A stretch of DNA of 6,410 nt from a virus. Taxonomy: Duplodnaviria > Heunggongvirae > Uroviricota > Caudoviricetes. Below, one piece after another: positions 1 through 6,410 of the stretch; positions within the stretch are counted from its first letter, which is position 1; each line of letters begins with the position of its first letter. The DNA is taken from IMG/VR virus record IMGVR_UViG_2671180892_000009, positions 1 to 6,410 of that record. One strand, written 5' to 3'. The translations under genes and the position numbers were made by a program. The notes under the pieces were generated by a model, which saw nothing but the letters and a program-made list of their open reading frames with translations, was not told the DNA's origin and made no database searches.

Positions 1-582
1 TTACTCTGCAGGTGAAGTCGGCCACTCAATATCAGGTGCAGTTGATGTATCAACACGGTTCAGCAATACCCGATACTTCTTCCAGGCTTCCAGCAACGAG
101 GTTTCTTCCTCCGTTGCAATTTCCAGATCTGCAGCATCCTGAAGCGGCGCAATATGCTCACTGGCTACCTGCATCAGGCTTTTTTTTGTTTCTTCCGCCT
201 CCCGGATCCGGAACAGTTTTTCTGCTTCCGTATCCTTCACCCAGGCTGTGCCGTTCCACTTCTGATATTCCCCTCCCGGCGATAACCAGGTAAAATTTTC
301 CGGTAACGGACCGAGTTCAGAAATAAATAACGCGTCGCCGGAAGCCACGTCATAGACGGTTTTACCCCGATGGTCTTCAACGAGATGCCACGATGCCTCA
401 TCACTGTTGAAAACAGCCACAAAGCCAGCCGGAATATCTGGCGGTGCAATATCGGTACTGTTTGCTGGCAGACCTGTATGAGGCGGAATATATGCGTCAC
501 CTTCACCAATAAATTCATTAGTTCCGGCCAGCAGATTATAAATTTTTATGGTCCGTGGTTGTTCACTCATTCTGAATGCCAT
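1..582 (-). CDS. tfa: Tail fibre assembly protein (lambda Tfa family), 193 aa. The ATG at 580-582 overlaps the stop of the upstream tail-fibre fragment as TAATG; a second in-frame ATG lies at 568-570.
   Basis: Full-length ORF with its stop at 1-3. The translation ([51 protein letters not shown]...) matches the lambda/enterobacterial Tfa family as I remember it. It sits directly downstream of a tail-fibre C-terminal fragment, as in lambda stf-tfa. Confidence 0.85.
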
Positions 583-914
583 TATGCAAGCCTCACAATA
601 TAGTTAAATGCAATGTTTTTGACGGTGTTTTCCGCGTTACCCGCAGCGTTAACGGTGATGGTGTGTCCGTGTGAACCAATACTGAAAGAATGGGCATGAG
701 CACCGATAACAACCGGATGCTGGTGCGCACCAATACCAACTGTATGCGCATGTGCACCGGCACTCACGGCTGTACCGGACAATGAGTGACTGTGGCTGCC
801 CTGACTGTCCGTTTTCGATAAATAAGCAATACCCTGTGTGTTGGTTCCTTTAACTGTGGATAAACTTCCTGTATCAATGCTTAAATCAATGACAAGGTCA
901 GCAATCTGGTCCAA
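582..914 (-). pseudogene. Deletion-fusion remnant: about 16 residues resembling the tape-measure (gpH) N-terminus joined in frame to a His-box side-tail-fibre C-terminal tip domain, 110 codons. The only possible start is TTG at 912-914.
   Basis: The N-terminus [16 protein letters not shown] resembles lambda gpH MAEPVGDLVVDLSLD. The rest (SHSHS, GAHAHT, GAHQHP, GAHAHS, GSHGHT ... [11 protein letters not shown]) has the repeated GxHxH boxes typical of T4 gp37 / lambda Stf fibre tips. There is no internal Met; an in-frame stop lies two codons upstream of the TTG; a strong Shine-Dalgarno (GGGAGGAA) precedes the TTG. The open frame is intact, so it may still be translated. Confidence 0.65.
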
Positions 915-1227
915 ATCTCATTCCTCCCGATATACCTTCCCCCAGATGCATCAGCTCTTCATCCGTGCGTTCAGGGATCACCCTGTCATCCGTAACCAGA
1001 CTGAAATCATCCGCCGGAATACGTTCACCGGACACCATCTGAACCATCAGCGACTTCAGTGTGGAAATCTGTGCATCCAGCCAGATATCCCCGAAACTCT
1101 GCTTCCGGAAGAAATCCCCCCATTCGCCCAGTTCTGACGCTGACATTTCTGATAACATCCGCCGCCAGTCTGCCCGCCGGAACTCACGGGCAAGCTGCAT
1201 CACAAACTGCATCTCCCGCGTCAGGAC
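898..1227 (-). CDS. gpT-like frame, the -1 frame relative to G, expected to be expressed only as a G-T fusion by programmed -1 frameshifting. The frame is open from 1251; the first ATG is at 1210-1212.
   Basis: Position and frame match the lambda G/T arrangement: the frame is -1 relative to G, it opens 9 codons before the G stop, and it ends just inside the start of the gpH-like ORF. The protein sequence was not matched to lambda gpT from memory, so the call rests on synteny. Confidence 0.55.
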
Positions 1228-1610
1228 TTTTCCGGTGTCAGGGGAACCTGTTCACCGTTCTGAACATCACCGGTGGAGACCGGCATACCACTCAGGGATA
1301 AAACCAGACTGCCCCCGTCGCCAAGCGCGTCATAAGACCAGGTGTTTTTTACATCCTCATTCAGCGCATCCACATCCTGTGACGGGTCCGTATTCCACAT
1401 TGACCGGGAAACCAGCCAGGCATTGATATCCATCCCCATACGCAGAAATTCAATCTGACGATCCGCCACCGGCATGGCATCATCCAGGGCGTCAAACTCA
1501 GCTGTCCGTTTCTGGACAAACGCCAGATACTCCACCCGCTGAAGTCCGGATAATTCTGTCAGTACCACAGACTGATTACCGTAGTTAAATGTGTCCTGTT
1601 TCAGAAACAT
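1221..1610 (-). CDS. G: Tail assembly chaperone gpG-like, 129 aa from the ATG at 1608-1610.
   Basis: The N-terminus MFLKQDTFNYGNQSVVLTELSGLQRVEYLA resembles lambda gpG MFLKTESFEHNGVTVTLSELSALQRIEHLA. A strong Shine-Dalgarno (GGAGGGG) lies 4 nt upstream of the ATG. It sits between V and the T frame, as in lambda. Confidence 0.8.
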   Translation of the reverse strand: MFLKQDTFNYGNQSVVLTELSGLQRVEYLAFVQKRTAEFDALDDAMPVADRQIEFLRMGMDINAWLVSRSMWNTDPSQDVDALNEDVKNTWSYDALGDGGSLVLSLSGMPVSTGDVQNGEQVPLTPEKS

Positions 1611-1619
1611 GTCCCCTCC

Positions 1620-1648
1620 GTAAACAAAAAACCCCGGCATACCGGGGT
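1620..1648 (-). terminator. Rho-independent terminator-like hairpin between V and G. On the minus-strand RNA it reads ACCCCGG-UAUG-CCGGGGU followed by UUUUUUGUUU.
   Basis: Seen in sequence: a 7-bp GC-rich stem (plus 1631-1637 and 1642-1648) with a 4-nt loop, immediately followed on the minus strand by a U-tract. It lies in the 56-nt V-G intergenic region just upstream of the G ribosome-binding site. Confidence 0.55.
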
Positions 1649-1666
1649 AAAAAACAGACTGCCAGG

Positions 1667-2407
1667 TTAATCACCATTAACGGTAATACCGGCCACAGCA
1701 ACCTGCGCACCACCCGCAGTCATCCCCACAATCGAGGTGCTGCCCGCTTTCACACCTTTCACCGTGGCCACCATGCCACTCAGCGTAACCGTGGCGATAT
1801 CAGGAGATGATGACGCCACGCTCACCGTTTTATCAGAAGCATCTTCCGGTACTGTGCTGAATGTCAGCGTCGTCGTTGCCCCCACTCTGACACTGGCGGA
1901 AACCGGCATTACTGTCAGCCCGGTCACCCCCACAATTTCAGTCCCCTCCTCAGCCAGATACGGACGCCCCACACCGCTGATTTTAACCGTACGGGTCATC
2001 ACATCTTTTGACGTAATGGTTTTACCCAGCGAACTCAGCCAGCCGCGGAACACATCAACGGTACCGTTAGGGTATTTAATGCGGAATGCACGAACTTCAC
2101 CGGAATCAAACAACTGAATCAGTTTTTTCTGTCCGCTGTCACCCGGACGCCAGGCCAGCGTCGCGGATGTATCACCAACAGATTTTTGCCCCTGAGTTGT
2201 CGTTTTCCAGTCAGCATTTTCATCATCGAGATAATCGTCATCTTCCGCATCTGCAGTCATTTCCCCCGGCTGCAGATCCTTCACCATCGCGAGGCGCAGC
2301 CAGTCCGTATCTGACAAAGGATTCGCAAATGCGTCGCCCTTGCCGGTATACATCCAGAACGTCGTCCCCGCCCCTTTCATTTTTTCAAGTGGATTCGGTG
2401 TCGTCAT
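1667..2407 (-). CDS. V: Major tail (tube) protein gpV-like, 246 aa, with a C-terminal Ig-like (Big_2-type) domain. Start at the ATG at 2405-2407 rather than the upstream start given in the ORF track.
   Basis: MTTPNPLEKMKGAGTTFWMYTGKGDAFANPLSDTDW... aligns along its length with lambda gpV ([36 protein letters not shown]...). Same length as lambda gpV (246 aa). Shine-Dalgarno AAGGGGTGGG upstream of the ATG. Confidence 0.9.
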   Translation of the reverse strand: MTTPNPLEKMKGAGTTFWMYTGKGDAFANPLSDTDWLRLAMVKDLQPGEMTADAEDDDYLDDENADWKTTTQGQKSVGDTSATLAWRPGDSGQKKLIQLFDSGEVRAFRIKYPNGTVDVFRGWLSSLGKTITSKDVMTRTVKISGVGRPYLAEEGTEIVGVTGLTVMPVSASVRVGATTTLTFSTVPEDASDKTVSVASSSPDIATVTLSGMVATVKGVKAGSTSIVGMTAGGAQVAVAGITVNGD

Positions 2408-2417
2408 TTCCCACCCC

Positions 2418-3026
2418 TTAATTTGTATATGTGATTTGATACGTGATTTCCGCCATCGCCCATGTTGCCATATCGTTATCACGCTGATAGTTAAATCCCC
2501 GTGGGATCATGGTATCGATAAGGCCGTAAAGCGCCGGAATATCCTCCAGTGCCGGGTAAATAATGTTGTCCATCCACGTATCCAGATCAGAATCCGGTGC
2601 CTGTGCGCGGATAAAGACGGCGACATGCAGAACTGCCAGCCAGTCATCCTCATCCGTCATTTTTCCGGTGTACTGTGCATCACTCAGCCACACCGCCACG
2701 GCAGGCAGCTCCTGCGCATCAATAAAGGCAGGAAGGCCGTCAAACAGGACGGTCTTCTCCCCGCACGTCGTTTTCAGGCGCGACAATACGGCCTGACGAA
2801 TTTGTGTGTGTCGGTTCATCGGGTCAGATATAACCTCAGTTGGTGTTTCAGGGCATACACCCAGCGCACTTTCCAGCTCTTCAATATACTGACGCAGTTC
2901 ACCAATTGTCGCCCGCGAATACTGAACCTGACGCCCGTCCTTGCTGACGGAAACCACAGCACGTCCGATCATCAGTTCATGTAACGCCCGGCGGGCATCG
3001 CATAGCATTTCATGCGTATAAATCAT
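2418..3026 (-). CDS. In-frame fusion ORF: gpW-like head-tail joining protein (about residues 1-57), a roughly 13-residue junction, then a complete gpU-like tail terminator starting at an internal Met at 2817-2819. Start at the ATG at 3024-3026; a GTG at 3027-3029 is also in frame.
   Basis: N-terminal part: ARRALHELMIGRAVVSVSKDGRQVQYSRATIGELRQYIEELE versus lambda gpW [42 protein letters not shown]. C-terminal part: MNRHTQIRQAVL...FDGLPAFIDAQELPAVAVWLSDAQYTG...IPALYGLIDTM...ITYQITY versus lambda gpU MKHTELRAAVL...FDGRPAVFDEADFPAVAVYLTGAEYTG...IPALSDLITSM...LTYVITY. Shine-Dalgarno GGAGGA 7 nt upstream of the ATG. Confidence 0.8.
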   Translation of the reverse strand: MIYTHEMLCDARRALHELMIGRAVVSVSKDGRQVQYSRATIGELRQYIEELESALGVCPETPTEVISDPMNRHTQIRQAVLSRLKTTCGEKTVLFDGLPAFIDAQELPAVAVWLSDAQYTGKMTDEDDWLAVLHVAVFIRAQAPDSDLDTWMDNIIYPALEDIPALYGLIDTMIPRGFNYQRDNDMATWAMAEITYQITYTN

Positions 3027-3029
3027 CAC

Positions 3030-4946
3030 TTATCCTCCACTCAGAGCAGCCGCGATTTCTTCAATAGTCATTTCATCGTCGTCCTGTTCATCTCTTCTGG
3101 CGCGGGCCAGTGCATCCAGATCCAGTTGCCACCGCTGAACGGAAATGCGCAGCGCTGCATAGGCATACACCAGACAGTCCAGAGCTTCATTACGCCGTTT
3201 TCTGGCATCCCACTGGAGTTTCACCCGCCCGTTCACAACTTTTTCAACCAGCTCTTCTGCCACGAGTTGTTTAGCTTCAACATCAGAAAAAATGTCCGGG
3301 TTATCCGGAAAACGGAAGGTATACGGTGCGACTTCACTGGCAGATACCACCGGCAGGGCAAAACGCGCATACAGCATTTCCTTGACGGTATCGGAACCCA
3401 CCTCACACAAAAACACCCCACGCTGGTTTCGCTTTTTTGGCATGGTGATCACCGGCTTGCCGTACACCGACGCCCCTTTGATGGGGAGCACAAAAAAAGT
3501 GCCGTGTTTTCTGGATCGCTGATACACAATGTCCTGGTCAATACCACCGGTATCCCAGCAGACGCGGGAAATGGAAATTTCAGTGCCATCTGCATGACGG
3601 TATTTTTTCCGGATCACGGCATCAACGCGTTTAAGGGTGTCCTCATCTTCCGGTCTCCCCATGATGATCTGCTTGTCAATCAGAAAAGCTTCTTCGCCAG
3701 GAGCCCAGCCCCAGACATAAATCTCATAACGGTTTTTCTGAGAGTCGATCCCTGCGGTCAGGTAAACCACCCGCAGGGGAACCTGCGCATCATAGTGGCA
3801 GACTTTTTCCAGCAATAACTCAAAGCTCAGTTTTTCTGCCACAGCCTCTTCATAAGGCTCCCCCAGCGTGGTGTTAATGAACGTCTTGACGCCATTCGGA
3901 TCCTTCAGTGCATCAAGCCAGTCATAAACAATCTGTACCCAGGTGGTGAACGGGCTGTATGCCGTCCAGATGTGGTACGAGATTGAGCGCGGTGGCGGGA
4001 TTTCCTCATCACCGGCGCTGTAAAATGTCAGACCGTCACGCGTCCACATCCCGGTATTGTCACAAATCCACCGCCCGTCGGTCTGGTCAAGTTCCGACTG
4101 ACGGATCGCGCAGCCATTATGTTCACACAGGTAATACACCGTCTCCGGCTTGCCCTTCTCCCATTTCAGGCCAAAGGTTGTCGCATCATCGCCAAACTTC
4201 AGATACTGGGCTTCACCACAATGAGGGCATGGCACATAAAACCGCATAAAATGTGCAGATTCGTTCGCGGCTTTTTCAATCTGGCAAAAACCTTTAATTT
4301 TGGGCGTTGAGCCGCGTATGGATTTAGGCCATACCGAACCTTCGATACGCTTATCGCCAAGCAGAGTTGGTGAACCTTCTTTTTCCACATCCGGTTCAAA
4401 CGAGGAGAGTTCGTCATAGCAGACCACATCCACAGATTTTTCACGGTAGTTTTTGGCAGCAGCTCCGCCCAGACACCAGAATCCCACACCGGAGGAGAAA
4501 CGTTTCAGGGTAAGCGTGTTGTCCCGATGTTTTCTGCCAAACCACGGAGCCAGCTCCAGTAATACAGGAACGTCTCTTATCGTTGGTTCGACATGGGATT
4601 TCATAAAATCTTCTGCCGCAGAATCTGTCGGCTGAAAAAGCAGGCTGTTACGGGATTTGTGTTCAATAAAATAAGCCTCCACCCCCAACAGCATTTTGGT
4701 GTAACCAACACGCGCCGATTTAATCAGATTAACGGTGCGGATCCGGTCATTCCCCATGCTGTTCATGATGGCAACCTGAAACGGCAGTGTTTCCCATTGC
4801 CCGGGAGTATATGAAGACTCTTTTGGCAGATAATAATGCTGATCAGCCCACTGAACTGTCGTCAGTGGTACCGGAATATTGAGAGATACAAGCCCTGTTG
4901 CTATCGCACCGGCTGCATTAGCTGCCTTCTGTGCGTCTGAAATCAT
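3030..4946 (-). CDS. A: Terminase large subunit gpA-like, about 638 aa. Start at the ATG at 4944-4946; a TTG at 4947-4949 is also in frame.
   Basis: Collinear similarity to lambda gpA over the whole length, for example [88 protein letters not shown] and [19 protein letters not shown]. Near-identical size to lambda gpA (641 aa). No internal stops. Confidence 0.95.
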
Positions 4947-5466
4947 CAATCCACCCGCCTACGTTCTCACCAGCTTTAGCTGCAACGTTGGAGGCTTTTG
5001 CGATTTCAGTTTTCACCACATCAAGGTGTGACGGTGAAATATCCGGATATTTACGCTGTAATGTCAGCGGCACACGTACAAGTATCCCCGAAATCTCCTG
5101 TGCCACACGTTGCAGAATGAAGGTAAACAATTCCGTTTCCAGTACCAGCCCTTCTTCGCGGGCATTTTTCAGTTCCTGTGCATCAGCCTGTGCTTTTGTG
5201 AGTCGGTAGCGCTCATAGTCAATGGTGCCGGGTTGTAAATCTGATTCCGCAGCCGCACGCAAATCCTCGGTCTCTTTGCGGAGTTTTTCGTTTTCAATAT
5301 CGGCTTCGCGCTGCGCATACCACTGAATTGCCATGGCGGTATCAAATACAGATTCAACCCCCTTACTACCACCAGAGACACAAGAGAGCCCCTGAGACTG
5401 CCAGCGTTCAATCGTTCGTGGATCCACGTTGAAAATTTCCGCGAGCTTCTTTTTATTAACCTTCAT
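4918..5466 (-). CDS. nu1: Terminase small subunit Nu1-like, 182 aa, with an N-terminal HTH DNA-binding domain. Start at the ATG at 5464-5466; the ORF track starts 6 codons upstream at 5484. The 3' end overlaps the start of A.
   Basis: [26 protein letters not shown]...[57 protein letters not shown] closely parallels lambda Nu1 (MEVNKKQLADIFGASIRTIQNWQEQG...[56 protein letters not shown]). Confidence 0.9.
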
Positions 5467-5490
5467 AAAACATTTCCATATCAAATGCAG

Positions 5491-5690
5491 GGTCCGACAT
5501 GGAAGTGCTCAAAAACGTCTTTTTCGGGCACTTTCATGTCGGACCTTTTACGGATGTGATTGATGAAAAAACAATGAGTTATACACGAGAAGTACCGACA
5601 CGCTTTTTCCCGAAAAATTTTCATAAATAGCGAAAATCCGCGCCGCTGCCGCCCCGTGGCAGACCACCCCACCGGAAGGACCCGTACAAA
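5491..5690 (-). other. Lambda-type cos site on the minus strand: cosQ-like element (about 5668-5686), cosN with a candidate 12-nt cohesive end GGGCGGCAGCGG (5643-5654), and cosB with candidate Nu1-binding repeats (18-bp inverted repeat arms at 5491-5508 and 5528-5545).
   Basis: The minus-strand sequence ACGGGTCCTTCCGGTG...GCCACG GGGCGGCAGCGG CGCGGATTTTCGCTATTTATGAAAATTTTTCGG aligns with the lambda right end / cos / left end as I remember it (ACGGGTCCTTTCCGGTG...GGTTACG GGGCGGCGACCT CGCGGGTTTTCGCTATTTATGAAAATTTTCCGG). The distance from cosN to the Nu1 start is about 180 bp, as in lambda. Confidence 0.75.
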
Positions 5691-5828
5691 TAGAGTTATT
5701 ATTAATTACATTTACAGTAGGAATGATGTACATCATTGAAACACCATTCAGTCATATACCGACAGCATTCGGTGTTGCACTTCATAACTCTGCGACTACG
5801 GTTATAAAAGCATTGGCTACTTTTGCCA

Positions 5829-5870
5829 CCGGCAAATCTTCAATGGATTTCCCCTGCCGGTTTTTTATTT
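5829..5870 (+). terminator. Weak terminator-like hairpin on the plus strand (CCGGCA...TGCCGG with an internal loop) followed by TTTTTTATTTT.
   Basis: Seen in sequence only. The stem is interrupted and the loop is long; no upstream plus-strand gene is evident in the window. Confidence 0.25.
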
Positions 5871-6008
5871 TCATCGATGCATAACATTGCTTTTACATCA
5901 ATAGCAGCTATTGTCAGTAGTATGTTGTATCGATGCATGGGTGGTATTGGCGATCTTCGCCGACCGGTTCTGTGTAGCTCCCTATGACCGGTTTTTTTAT
6001 TTCTAAGA

Positions 6009-6045
6009 TTATAGAAGTCCTTCACTGTATGAAGGACTTCTATAA
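6009..6045. repeat. Perfect 16-bp inverted repeat (TTATAGAAGTCCTTCA / TGAAGGACTTCTATAA) separated by 5 bp. Function unknown: a stable hairpin or a dimeric protein-binding site.
   Basis: Seen directly in sequence: 6009-6024 is the exact reverse complement of 6030-6045. It lies about 75 bp from the IS3 terminus in an AT-rich non-coding stretch. Confidence 0.6.
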
Positions 6046-6119
6046 CGCTTCTTACTTTGTAATTTTCGCACCTTCCGGTAATTCCATAGGTTAAAAAAAC
6101 CTCATAATCTCTGACAATT

Positions 6120-6410
6120 TGATCCTACCCACGTAATATGGACACAGGCCTAAGCGAGGTTCTGGTTTTCAAATTGTTCCGGACTGAGGCCGCCACACCA
6201 ACTGTGCCGCCGCCACCGATTGTAATCACATTCGATATAATTAAACACCGTTGCCCGCATTATTTCCCGGCTGATAAAGTGTTCTCCATGGATACATTCC
6301 ACTTTCAGCGAATGAAAGAAGCTTTCCACGCAGGCATTATCGTAGCAGCAACCTTTTGCGCTCATACTTCCACGCAGATTATGCCGTTTCTGTTGCGCCT
6401 GATAATCTGC
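6120..6410 (-). mobile_element. IS3 (IS3 family) insertion sequence, right-end portion, with the terminal inverted repeat beginning TGATCCTACCCACGTAATATGGACACAGGCC at 6120. The element continues beyond the window edge.
   Basis: The terminus starting with TGATCC matches the IS3 end sequence as I remember it, and the adjacent ORF encodes the C-terminus of the IS3 orfB transposase. Confidence 0.9.
6150..6410 (-). CDS. insF: IS3 transposase orfB (InsF-like), C-terminal 86 residues of the DDE catalytic domain. 5'-partial: the N-terminus lies beyond the window.
   Basis: The frame is open to the window edge. The translation [86 protein letters not shown] matches the IS3 InsF C-terminus with two substitutions relative to the copy I remember (L to Q, K to Q). 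Confidence 0.9.

Follow-up and report, generated by a model that had tools for sequence, protein, structure and literature searches.

A W–U fusion ORF in a lambda-like Escherichia coli prophage remnant, in all probability an accident of prophage decay

The DNA analysed here, 6,410 nucleotides in all and referred to below as the window, matches exactly, on the opposite strand, positions 1-6410 of locus L006; that locus is the end, bounded by an IS3, of contig LOPH01000003.1 in the E. coli draft assembly GCA_001576105.1. It is a late-gene remnant of a lambda-like E. coli prophage adjoining potB. Its features are as follows; 'intact' genes encode proteins identical to those of a close relative, the prophage of E. 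coli strain ARS-C101.

6150-6410, minus strand: 3′ part of an IS3 transposase gene (Pfam), upstream of Nu1; the source contig ends here
4918-5466, minus strand: Nu1, intact terminase gene (Pfam)
3030-4946, minus strand: A, intact terminase gene (Pfam)
3034-3038, minus strand: Shine-Dalgarno sequence GGAGG, 7 nt upstream of the W ATG; duplex dG -9.3 kcal/mol
2418-3026, minus strand: chimeric W–U ORF; ATG at 3026, stop codon at 2418-2420; 202 codons plus stop
2856-3026, minus strand: W-derived part of the chimera, residues 1-57 of a 69-residue gpW homologue (Pfam and alignment with 1hyw)
2855-2858, minus strand: junction 1, exact microhomology GTAT common to W and Z (alignment with ARS-C101)
2820-2855, minus strand: 12-codon linker, CPETPTEVISDP; 3′-terminal Z sequence translated in the frame of U instead of that of Z
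2418-2819, minus strand: complete CDS of a gpU-like tail terminator, 133 codons plus stop (Pfam and PDB)
1667-2407, minus strand: V, intact tail gene (Pfam)
1221-1610, minus strand: G, intact tail gene (Pfam)
898-1212, minus strand: T, intact tail gene in the -1 frame relative to G (Pfam)
582-914, minus strand: another chimeric ORF, of 110 aa; 15 codons from the start of H (tape measure) run in frame into the closing 96 codons of stf (Pfam Phage_fiber repeat)
1-582, minus strand: tfa, tail fibre assembly gene, the final prophage gene ahead of potB

Nu1 and A precede W–U in the same late operon. Past tfa, the order downstream is potB, potA, pepT, roxA and phoQP; potC is a recognised integration site for lambdoid phages. 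The genes essential for particles that are missing from the element are B, C, D, E, FI, FII, Z, H, M, L, K, I, J and most of stf. Lacking portal, capsid, FII, Z, tape measure and tail tip, the element by itself can make neither heads nor tails. The cohesive-end (cos) sequence of lambda, GGGCGGCGACCT, does not occur anywhere in the window, even with up to 2 mismatches allowed, and so the cos of this phage—expected upstream of Nu1, at 5467-6149—must differ from that of lambda. T lies in the -1 frame with respect to G, as it does in lambda, but where lambda has its slippery site GGGAAAG, the end of G here (1212-1235) has CCGGAAAAGTCCTGA; because GGGAAAG is found nowhere in the window, any G–T frameshift would need the GGAAAAG / A-AAG stretch, instead. 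The sole Rfam match, IS009 (RF02111), falls at 41-239 on the minus strand, wholly inside tfa (gathering-level, 223.7 bits, E 1e-55, full model). It is unrelated to W–U, and may reflect an RNA family that was built on prophage tfa sequence.

From the letters alone, a first-pass annotation had read 2418-3026 as one uninterrupted frame, composed of most of a gpW-like head–tail joining protein, a short junction and a complete gpU-like tail terminator, and matches to Pfam and the PDB confirm this. The ORF list begins the frame at a GTG one codon further upstream, giving 203 aa; the ATG used here is the start annotated in relatives. From that ATG the computed product has a mass of 22.9 kDa and a pI of 4.5, and free U would be 15.1 kDa. 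Residues 7-58 match Pfam gpW (PF02831; 63.1 bits against a cut-off of 22.5, profile positions 4-55 of 66), and residues 72-201 match Phage_tail_U along the whole of its profile (PF06141; 191.7 bits, E 7e-57, positions 1-130 of 130). Searched against sequences of known structure, residues 5-58 match residues 4-57 of the 68 of lambda gpW (1hyw, E 5e-10), and residues 72-200 match lambda gpU (1z1z/3fzb, E about 1e-38 to 3e-38; residues 2-129 of 131 in 1z1z). Neither match, judged as sequence similarity, is marginal: the N-terminal 57 residues are W-like and the C-terminal 133 are U-like.

The two halves have fared differently. The U half matches both its family and lambda gpU over the full length, and is identical in protein sequence to the U of ARS-C101. 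The W half, although above the curated cut-off for its family and 100% identical to the W of ARS-C101 as far as the breakpoint, is not a complete gpW: it retains the helix-hairpin-helix core, but the last 12 residues, SGRRRGPAGVGL, the equivalent of the C-terminal arm in lambda, are gone. Nor does it sit next to a portal gene, as gpW should in a head-gene module; portal, protease/scaffold, decoration, capsid, FI and FII are all absent from the window. W extends to about residue 57, as the first-pass annotation had it, with the small correction that VCPETPTEVISDP takes its V from W, as residue 57. The junction, forecast to fall at 2820-2860, does so, the GTAT at 2855-2858 lying inside that range. 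Between the halves is a linker that belongs to neither. In its own frame Z terminates as ...QLGYALKHQLRLYLTR and a stop; in the U frame the identical DNA yields CPETPTEVISDP.

How the two genes came together can be read from the closest intact prophage, which occupies positions 1951771-1974830 of the E. coli ARS-C101 chromosome (NZ_CP132979.1; locus L003 below), beside potB. Its late region is complete: Nu1, A, W, portal, S49 peptidase, decoration protein, major capsid protein, FI, FII and Z, followed by U, V, G, T, H, M, L, K, I, J, lom, stf and tfa. The window aligns with it as three collinear blocks, 6410-2855, 2858-871 and 873-1, that differ from it by 1, 1 and 3 SNPs, respectively. In ARS-C101, W (L003 8212-8421) and U (14462-14863) are separate genes. 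The window tracks W exactly through ...GCGCTGGGTGTAT, and then the 3′ end of Z exactly from GTATGCCCTGAAAC... onward. What is missing between these points is a single contiguous segment of 6,043 bp (L003 8384-14426), with flanks that are 99.9-100% identical. It takes 12 codons from the end of W and 184 of the 196 in Z, together with the whole of the genes between them, B, C, D, E, FI and FII.

A deletion, then, made the fusion, as had been proposed from the window alone: a near-identical relative has W and U apart, and the window lacks exactly the intervening 6,043 bp. Loss of the head-gene block was likewise part of that proposal and is borne out; its extent is 6,043 bp, against the about 7 kb given for the W–U distance in lambda, and it reaches beyond the head genes to take most of the tail gene Z as well. 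Microhomology had been suggested as something to look for against an intact relative, and it is there. The GTAT at the junction is part of an imperfect 10/11-nt repeat, GCTGGG(T)GTAT, that reads GCTGGGTGTAT in W (window 2855-2865) and GCTGGGGTAT in Z. When breakpoint pairs were placed at random in the same prophage (n=200,000), microhomology of at least 4 bp arose in 2% of cases, and of at least 3 bp in 5.8%. At this 2% chance level, the GTAT gives junction 1 the signature of microhomology-mediated illegitimate recombination. All that marks a deletion chimera is thus present: separate genes in a close intact relative, a single contiguous deletion, microhomology at its ends, and the loss of genes essential for particles.

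That the product should be one open frame is a matter of what happens to lie upstream of U. The stop codon of Z overlaps the start codon of U in ARS-C101 (ATGA), and Z and U are therefore in different frames. The 36 nt before the U ATG are nevertheless free of stops in the U frame, and it was into this frame that the deletion put W. Other lambdoid phages also have this frame open ahead of the U ATG, as shown by tblastn matches that start at query residue 55-57. We propose that an otherwise intact prophage was struck by two RecA-independent microhomology deletions, through slipped mispairing or illegitimate recombination. The first would have removed the 6,043 bp that lie between the GTAT at W codons 56-58 and its counterpart 40 nt ahead of the U start; the frame of W would have run by chance into that of U, which has no stop in the 12 codons' worth of Z that remain, and an ORF of 202 codons would have resulted. 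We also considered a parent in which Z and U were already joined by a frameshift, as they are in P0032 (its 'QLGVC...' would give an exact 11-bp repeat), and set it aside. It is unnecessary—W as far as the GTAT plus a Z of the ARS-C101 type explains everything—and P0032 itself amounts to one extra G in a GGGG run, sharing residues with the chimera solely by way of the same point of entry into the U frame.

The second deletion is of the same kind. At 871-873 the window carries the microhomology TAC, and 11,551 bp present in ARS-C101 are missing, taking out H, M, L, K, I, J, lom and most of stf and joining H to the native frame of stf, the side tail fibre gene. The resulting H′–′Stf protein is deposited in NCBI as hypothetical protein KXR37136.1. 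Both deletions of the element are in frame, for which the chance is about 1/9.

Neither event can be old. The Nu1, A, U, V, G, T and Tfa proteins are identical between the window and ARS-C101, which indicates that the deletions are recent and that neither selection nor decay has had time to act on what was retained; by the same token, the chimera offers no test of selection. The IS3 is older. In ARS-C101 it sits (L003 3926-5088) between the lysis/Bor/DUF1398 region and Nu1, and it is found also in the intact relatives EC11, VG35A2 and N61; it is absent from R1 and others. Being common to intact relatives, its insertion must have preceded the deletions, and it may already have cut the late structural genes off from their promoter. 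The intact form of the prophage, at 99% identity or more, is present in about 11-22 complete E. coli genomes, mostly from cattle or cattle faeces.

The fusion itself is rare. Megablast of 5,426 complete E. coli genomes found the W–U junction in none, each flank occurring separately in prophages, and none of the 843 complete-genome records that carry most of the terminase–W region has the deletion. No fusion was found by tblastn among 50,697 phage records, where no single place covers 80% or more of the query. Exact-pattern scans for the junction were negative in the GTDB species representatives and, with one degenerate base allowed, in JGI metagenome contigs, and in the homology search no cluster representative paired PF02831 with PF06141. 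Neither the phage nor the homology searches turned up an intact phage that encodes W and U as one protein. In NCBI, the exact 202-aa protein is hypothetical protein HBA2713964.1, found on a handful of contigs, one of them 263 kb long. As far as these searches show, the W–U junction has been deposited only as a 'hypothetical protein', and never described.

A junction that occurs in no complete genome, on a draft contig cut short at an IS element, might be suspected of being a misjoin, two parts of an intact prophage brought together in the assembly of short reads. The chance of this is vanishingly small. Assemblers work with k-mers far longer than 3-4 bp, and the overlaps at the two junctions, 4 bp and 3 bp, fall far under those sizes. 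Both junctions, moreover, are identical in independent assemblies of different origin—GCA_001576105.1, GCA_965259585.1, Logan SRR3987556 with 3 samples, and the 263-kb contig that carries HBA2713964.1—one of which has 3 SNPs over 14 kb. The loci retrieved from the first three of these differ by 0-3 SNPs over up to 15.7 kb, near-identity that points to one lineage sequenced repeatedly and rules out an artefact of assembly.

A second version of the chimera does exist. P0009 (PPZ19068.1 and PPZ55278.1, from E. coli drafts) is another 202-aa W–U protein with the identical junction, but its linker carries P62T, an allele also present in strain C5, and the C-terminal half of its U differs from the window's: residues 130-185 are those of the common U allele found in P0034 and P0040. 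Either the junction outlived recombination within U, or it arose twice. If twice, the imperfect 10/11-nt repeat shared by W and the end of Z could be a hotspot that yields the same fusion over and over in this family of prophages. Diverged relatives, strain C5 among them, have kept the repeat, and P0009—the same junction, a C5-like P62T linker and another C-terminal half of U—is what such a hotspot might produce. P0009 is explained equally well, however, by homologous recombination within U after one deletion, and a site prone to deletion sits badly with the 843 terminase–W records from complete genomes, of which 0 have the deletion. We consider recurrence unlikely.

Whatever its origin, the chimera is placed to be translated. 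The GGAGG in front of W would drive translation of the entire fusion. At the internal ATG of U there is only GAGG, 14 nt upstream (dG -6.8; a value of -6 or below is found at 21% of background positions). The first-pass annotation had seen no obvious Shine-Dalgarno there, which is roughly right, except that this weak one exists. In the intact phage, the ATGA overlap between the Z stop and the U start suggests translational coupling; with the Z frame no longer there in front of it, U should be made as a free protein in small amounts at most. Were the late operon transcribed, the fusion should predominate over free U: the strong ribosome binding site of W would yield a protein of 22.9 kDa, in which a disordered linker connects a W core and a U domain that are both folded. 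An AF2 model, built from 46 homologues, mainly of U, has this form. In it the W module (residues 5-55) is predicted at a pLDDT of about 78-88 as helix 5-19, strand region 24-37 and helix 38-55; linker residues 60-69 fall below 50; and the U module is at about 90. A frame that is intact, a good ribosome binding site and two modules that could each fold make a stable product possible. They count against the view that the fusion is a mere accident, as do the in-frame outcome of both deletions and the second allele, P0009.

Could such a protein be useful? The first-pass annotation left the choice between an evolutionary accident and a functional adaptor open, and the evidence favors the accident: the fusion is recent and rare, the element is left without any head gene and with few of its tail genes, and the W part is without its C-terminal arm. 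The structure of the lambda virion makes the last of these telling. There, gpW forms a 12-mer under the portal and binds the portal wing through its C-terminal arm, residues 55-68, and a hexamer of gpFII lies between gpW and the gpU hexamer (PMC10721106). The fusion severs W at the equivalent of lambda residue 56. With the portal-binding arm gone, and a 12-fold component tied to a 6-fold one that is not its neighbor, a constructive role as an adaptor seems unlikely. Nor would the chimera find much to assemble with in its own prophage, the genes for portal, capsid, FII, Z, tape measure and tail tip having gone and its W having no C-terminal arm; on this proposal it would have no role in assembly at all.

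The alternative is a destructive role. The chimera could have been domesticated or exapted and act as a dominant-negative decoy, directed at lambdoid phages that superinfect the cell or already reside in it. Its U module could cap or join tail tubes while the bulky N-terminal W keeps gpFII and the head from docking, or, alternatively, its W core could enter adaptor rings without the arm that binds the portal. The features that make for a stable product—intact ORF, strong ribosome binding site, two modules predicted to fold—would serve this end, as would a U that is complete and identical to one that looks functional, and there is no shortage of potential targets: E. coli genomes commonly harbour a number of related lambdoid prophages, with a median of 6 matching places per genome. 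The same junction, too, is found on two alleles of U. Against these stand the lack of divergence from the intact relative, and hence of any evidence of selection, and the absence of the junction from all of the complete genomes and phages searched. The location counts against it too: in a late operon, expression would come solely after induction, and the contig breaks off in the IS3 before it reaches the prophage's regulatory region. Similar chimeras with many other partners, finally, look like random products of decay. We judge domestication highly unlikely. That the chimera, perhaps along with the terminase, V, G and T, is kept because it interferes with head–tail joining in related lambdoid phages has a very slim chance indeed of being correct. 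If it were correct, an anti-phage function would have arisen from a deletion in a prophage, and decay products could become defence genes.

Those other chimeras belong to prophage remnants of E. coli and Shigella, and they are varied. The decoration protein is fused to U in P0034 and P0039 (D–U), at two different junctions, one of which again enters through the 3′ end of Z in the U frame. FI is fused to U in P0109, from Shigella dysenteriae (13 contigs); Z is fused to U in P0032, by the +1 shift in the GGGG run close to the end of Z; and W residues 1-36 are joined to the C-terminus of a tail fibre in P0122. P0033 is also among the chimeric ORFs of these remnants. The variety implies that in-frame ORFs spanning deletion junctions recur as a by-product of the decay of lambdoid prophages, the degeneration of which into cryptic, or 'grounded', prophages has been reviewed (PMC6379469). 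The W–U fusion is, we think very probably, one of these: an accidental chimera of prophage decay that has no working role. As an event it is an ordinary scar of such decay, another instance of a familiar type. Its significance is limited to annotation unless the chimera interferes with the assembly of lambdoid phages, and HBA2713964.1 and PPZ19068.1 should be annotated as W′–′Z-U deletion chimeras of a defective prophage. The locus has value of another sort as a clean and datable case of microhomology-mediated prophage decay, the intact parent of which still circulates, mostly in bovine E. coli.

The element shares with the intact prophages—those of ARS-C101, R1, EC11, VG35A2 and N61—the site by potB-potA-pepT-roxA-phoQP and, on the segments that it retains, 99.7-100% nucleotide identity, and differs from them in lacking the 6,043 bp from the 3′ end of W into Z and the 11,551 bp from H through most of stf. 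Its W part resembles lambda gpW (PF02831; PDB 1hyw, 8k38) in having a predicted helix-hairpin-helix core, in following directly after terminase gene A, and in possessing its own ribosome binding site; unlike gpW, it is without the C-terminal 12 residues, is covalently tied to U, and has had the genes of its portal and FII partners deleted. Its U part matches lambda gpU (PF06141; PDB 1z1z, 3fzb, 8iyd) over the full length and, as in lambda, precedes V, G and T, but it bears an N-terminal extension of 69 residues, is not a free-standing gene, and has lost Z from upstream; the role of gpU as a free protein of ~15 kDa, forming a hexameric ring between gpV and gpFII, is in this element putative. 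The closest likeness in kind is to the deletion chimeras of cryptic prophages (PMC6379469), with which it has in common the loss of structural genes, a remnant that is non-inducible, and new ORFs at the junctions.
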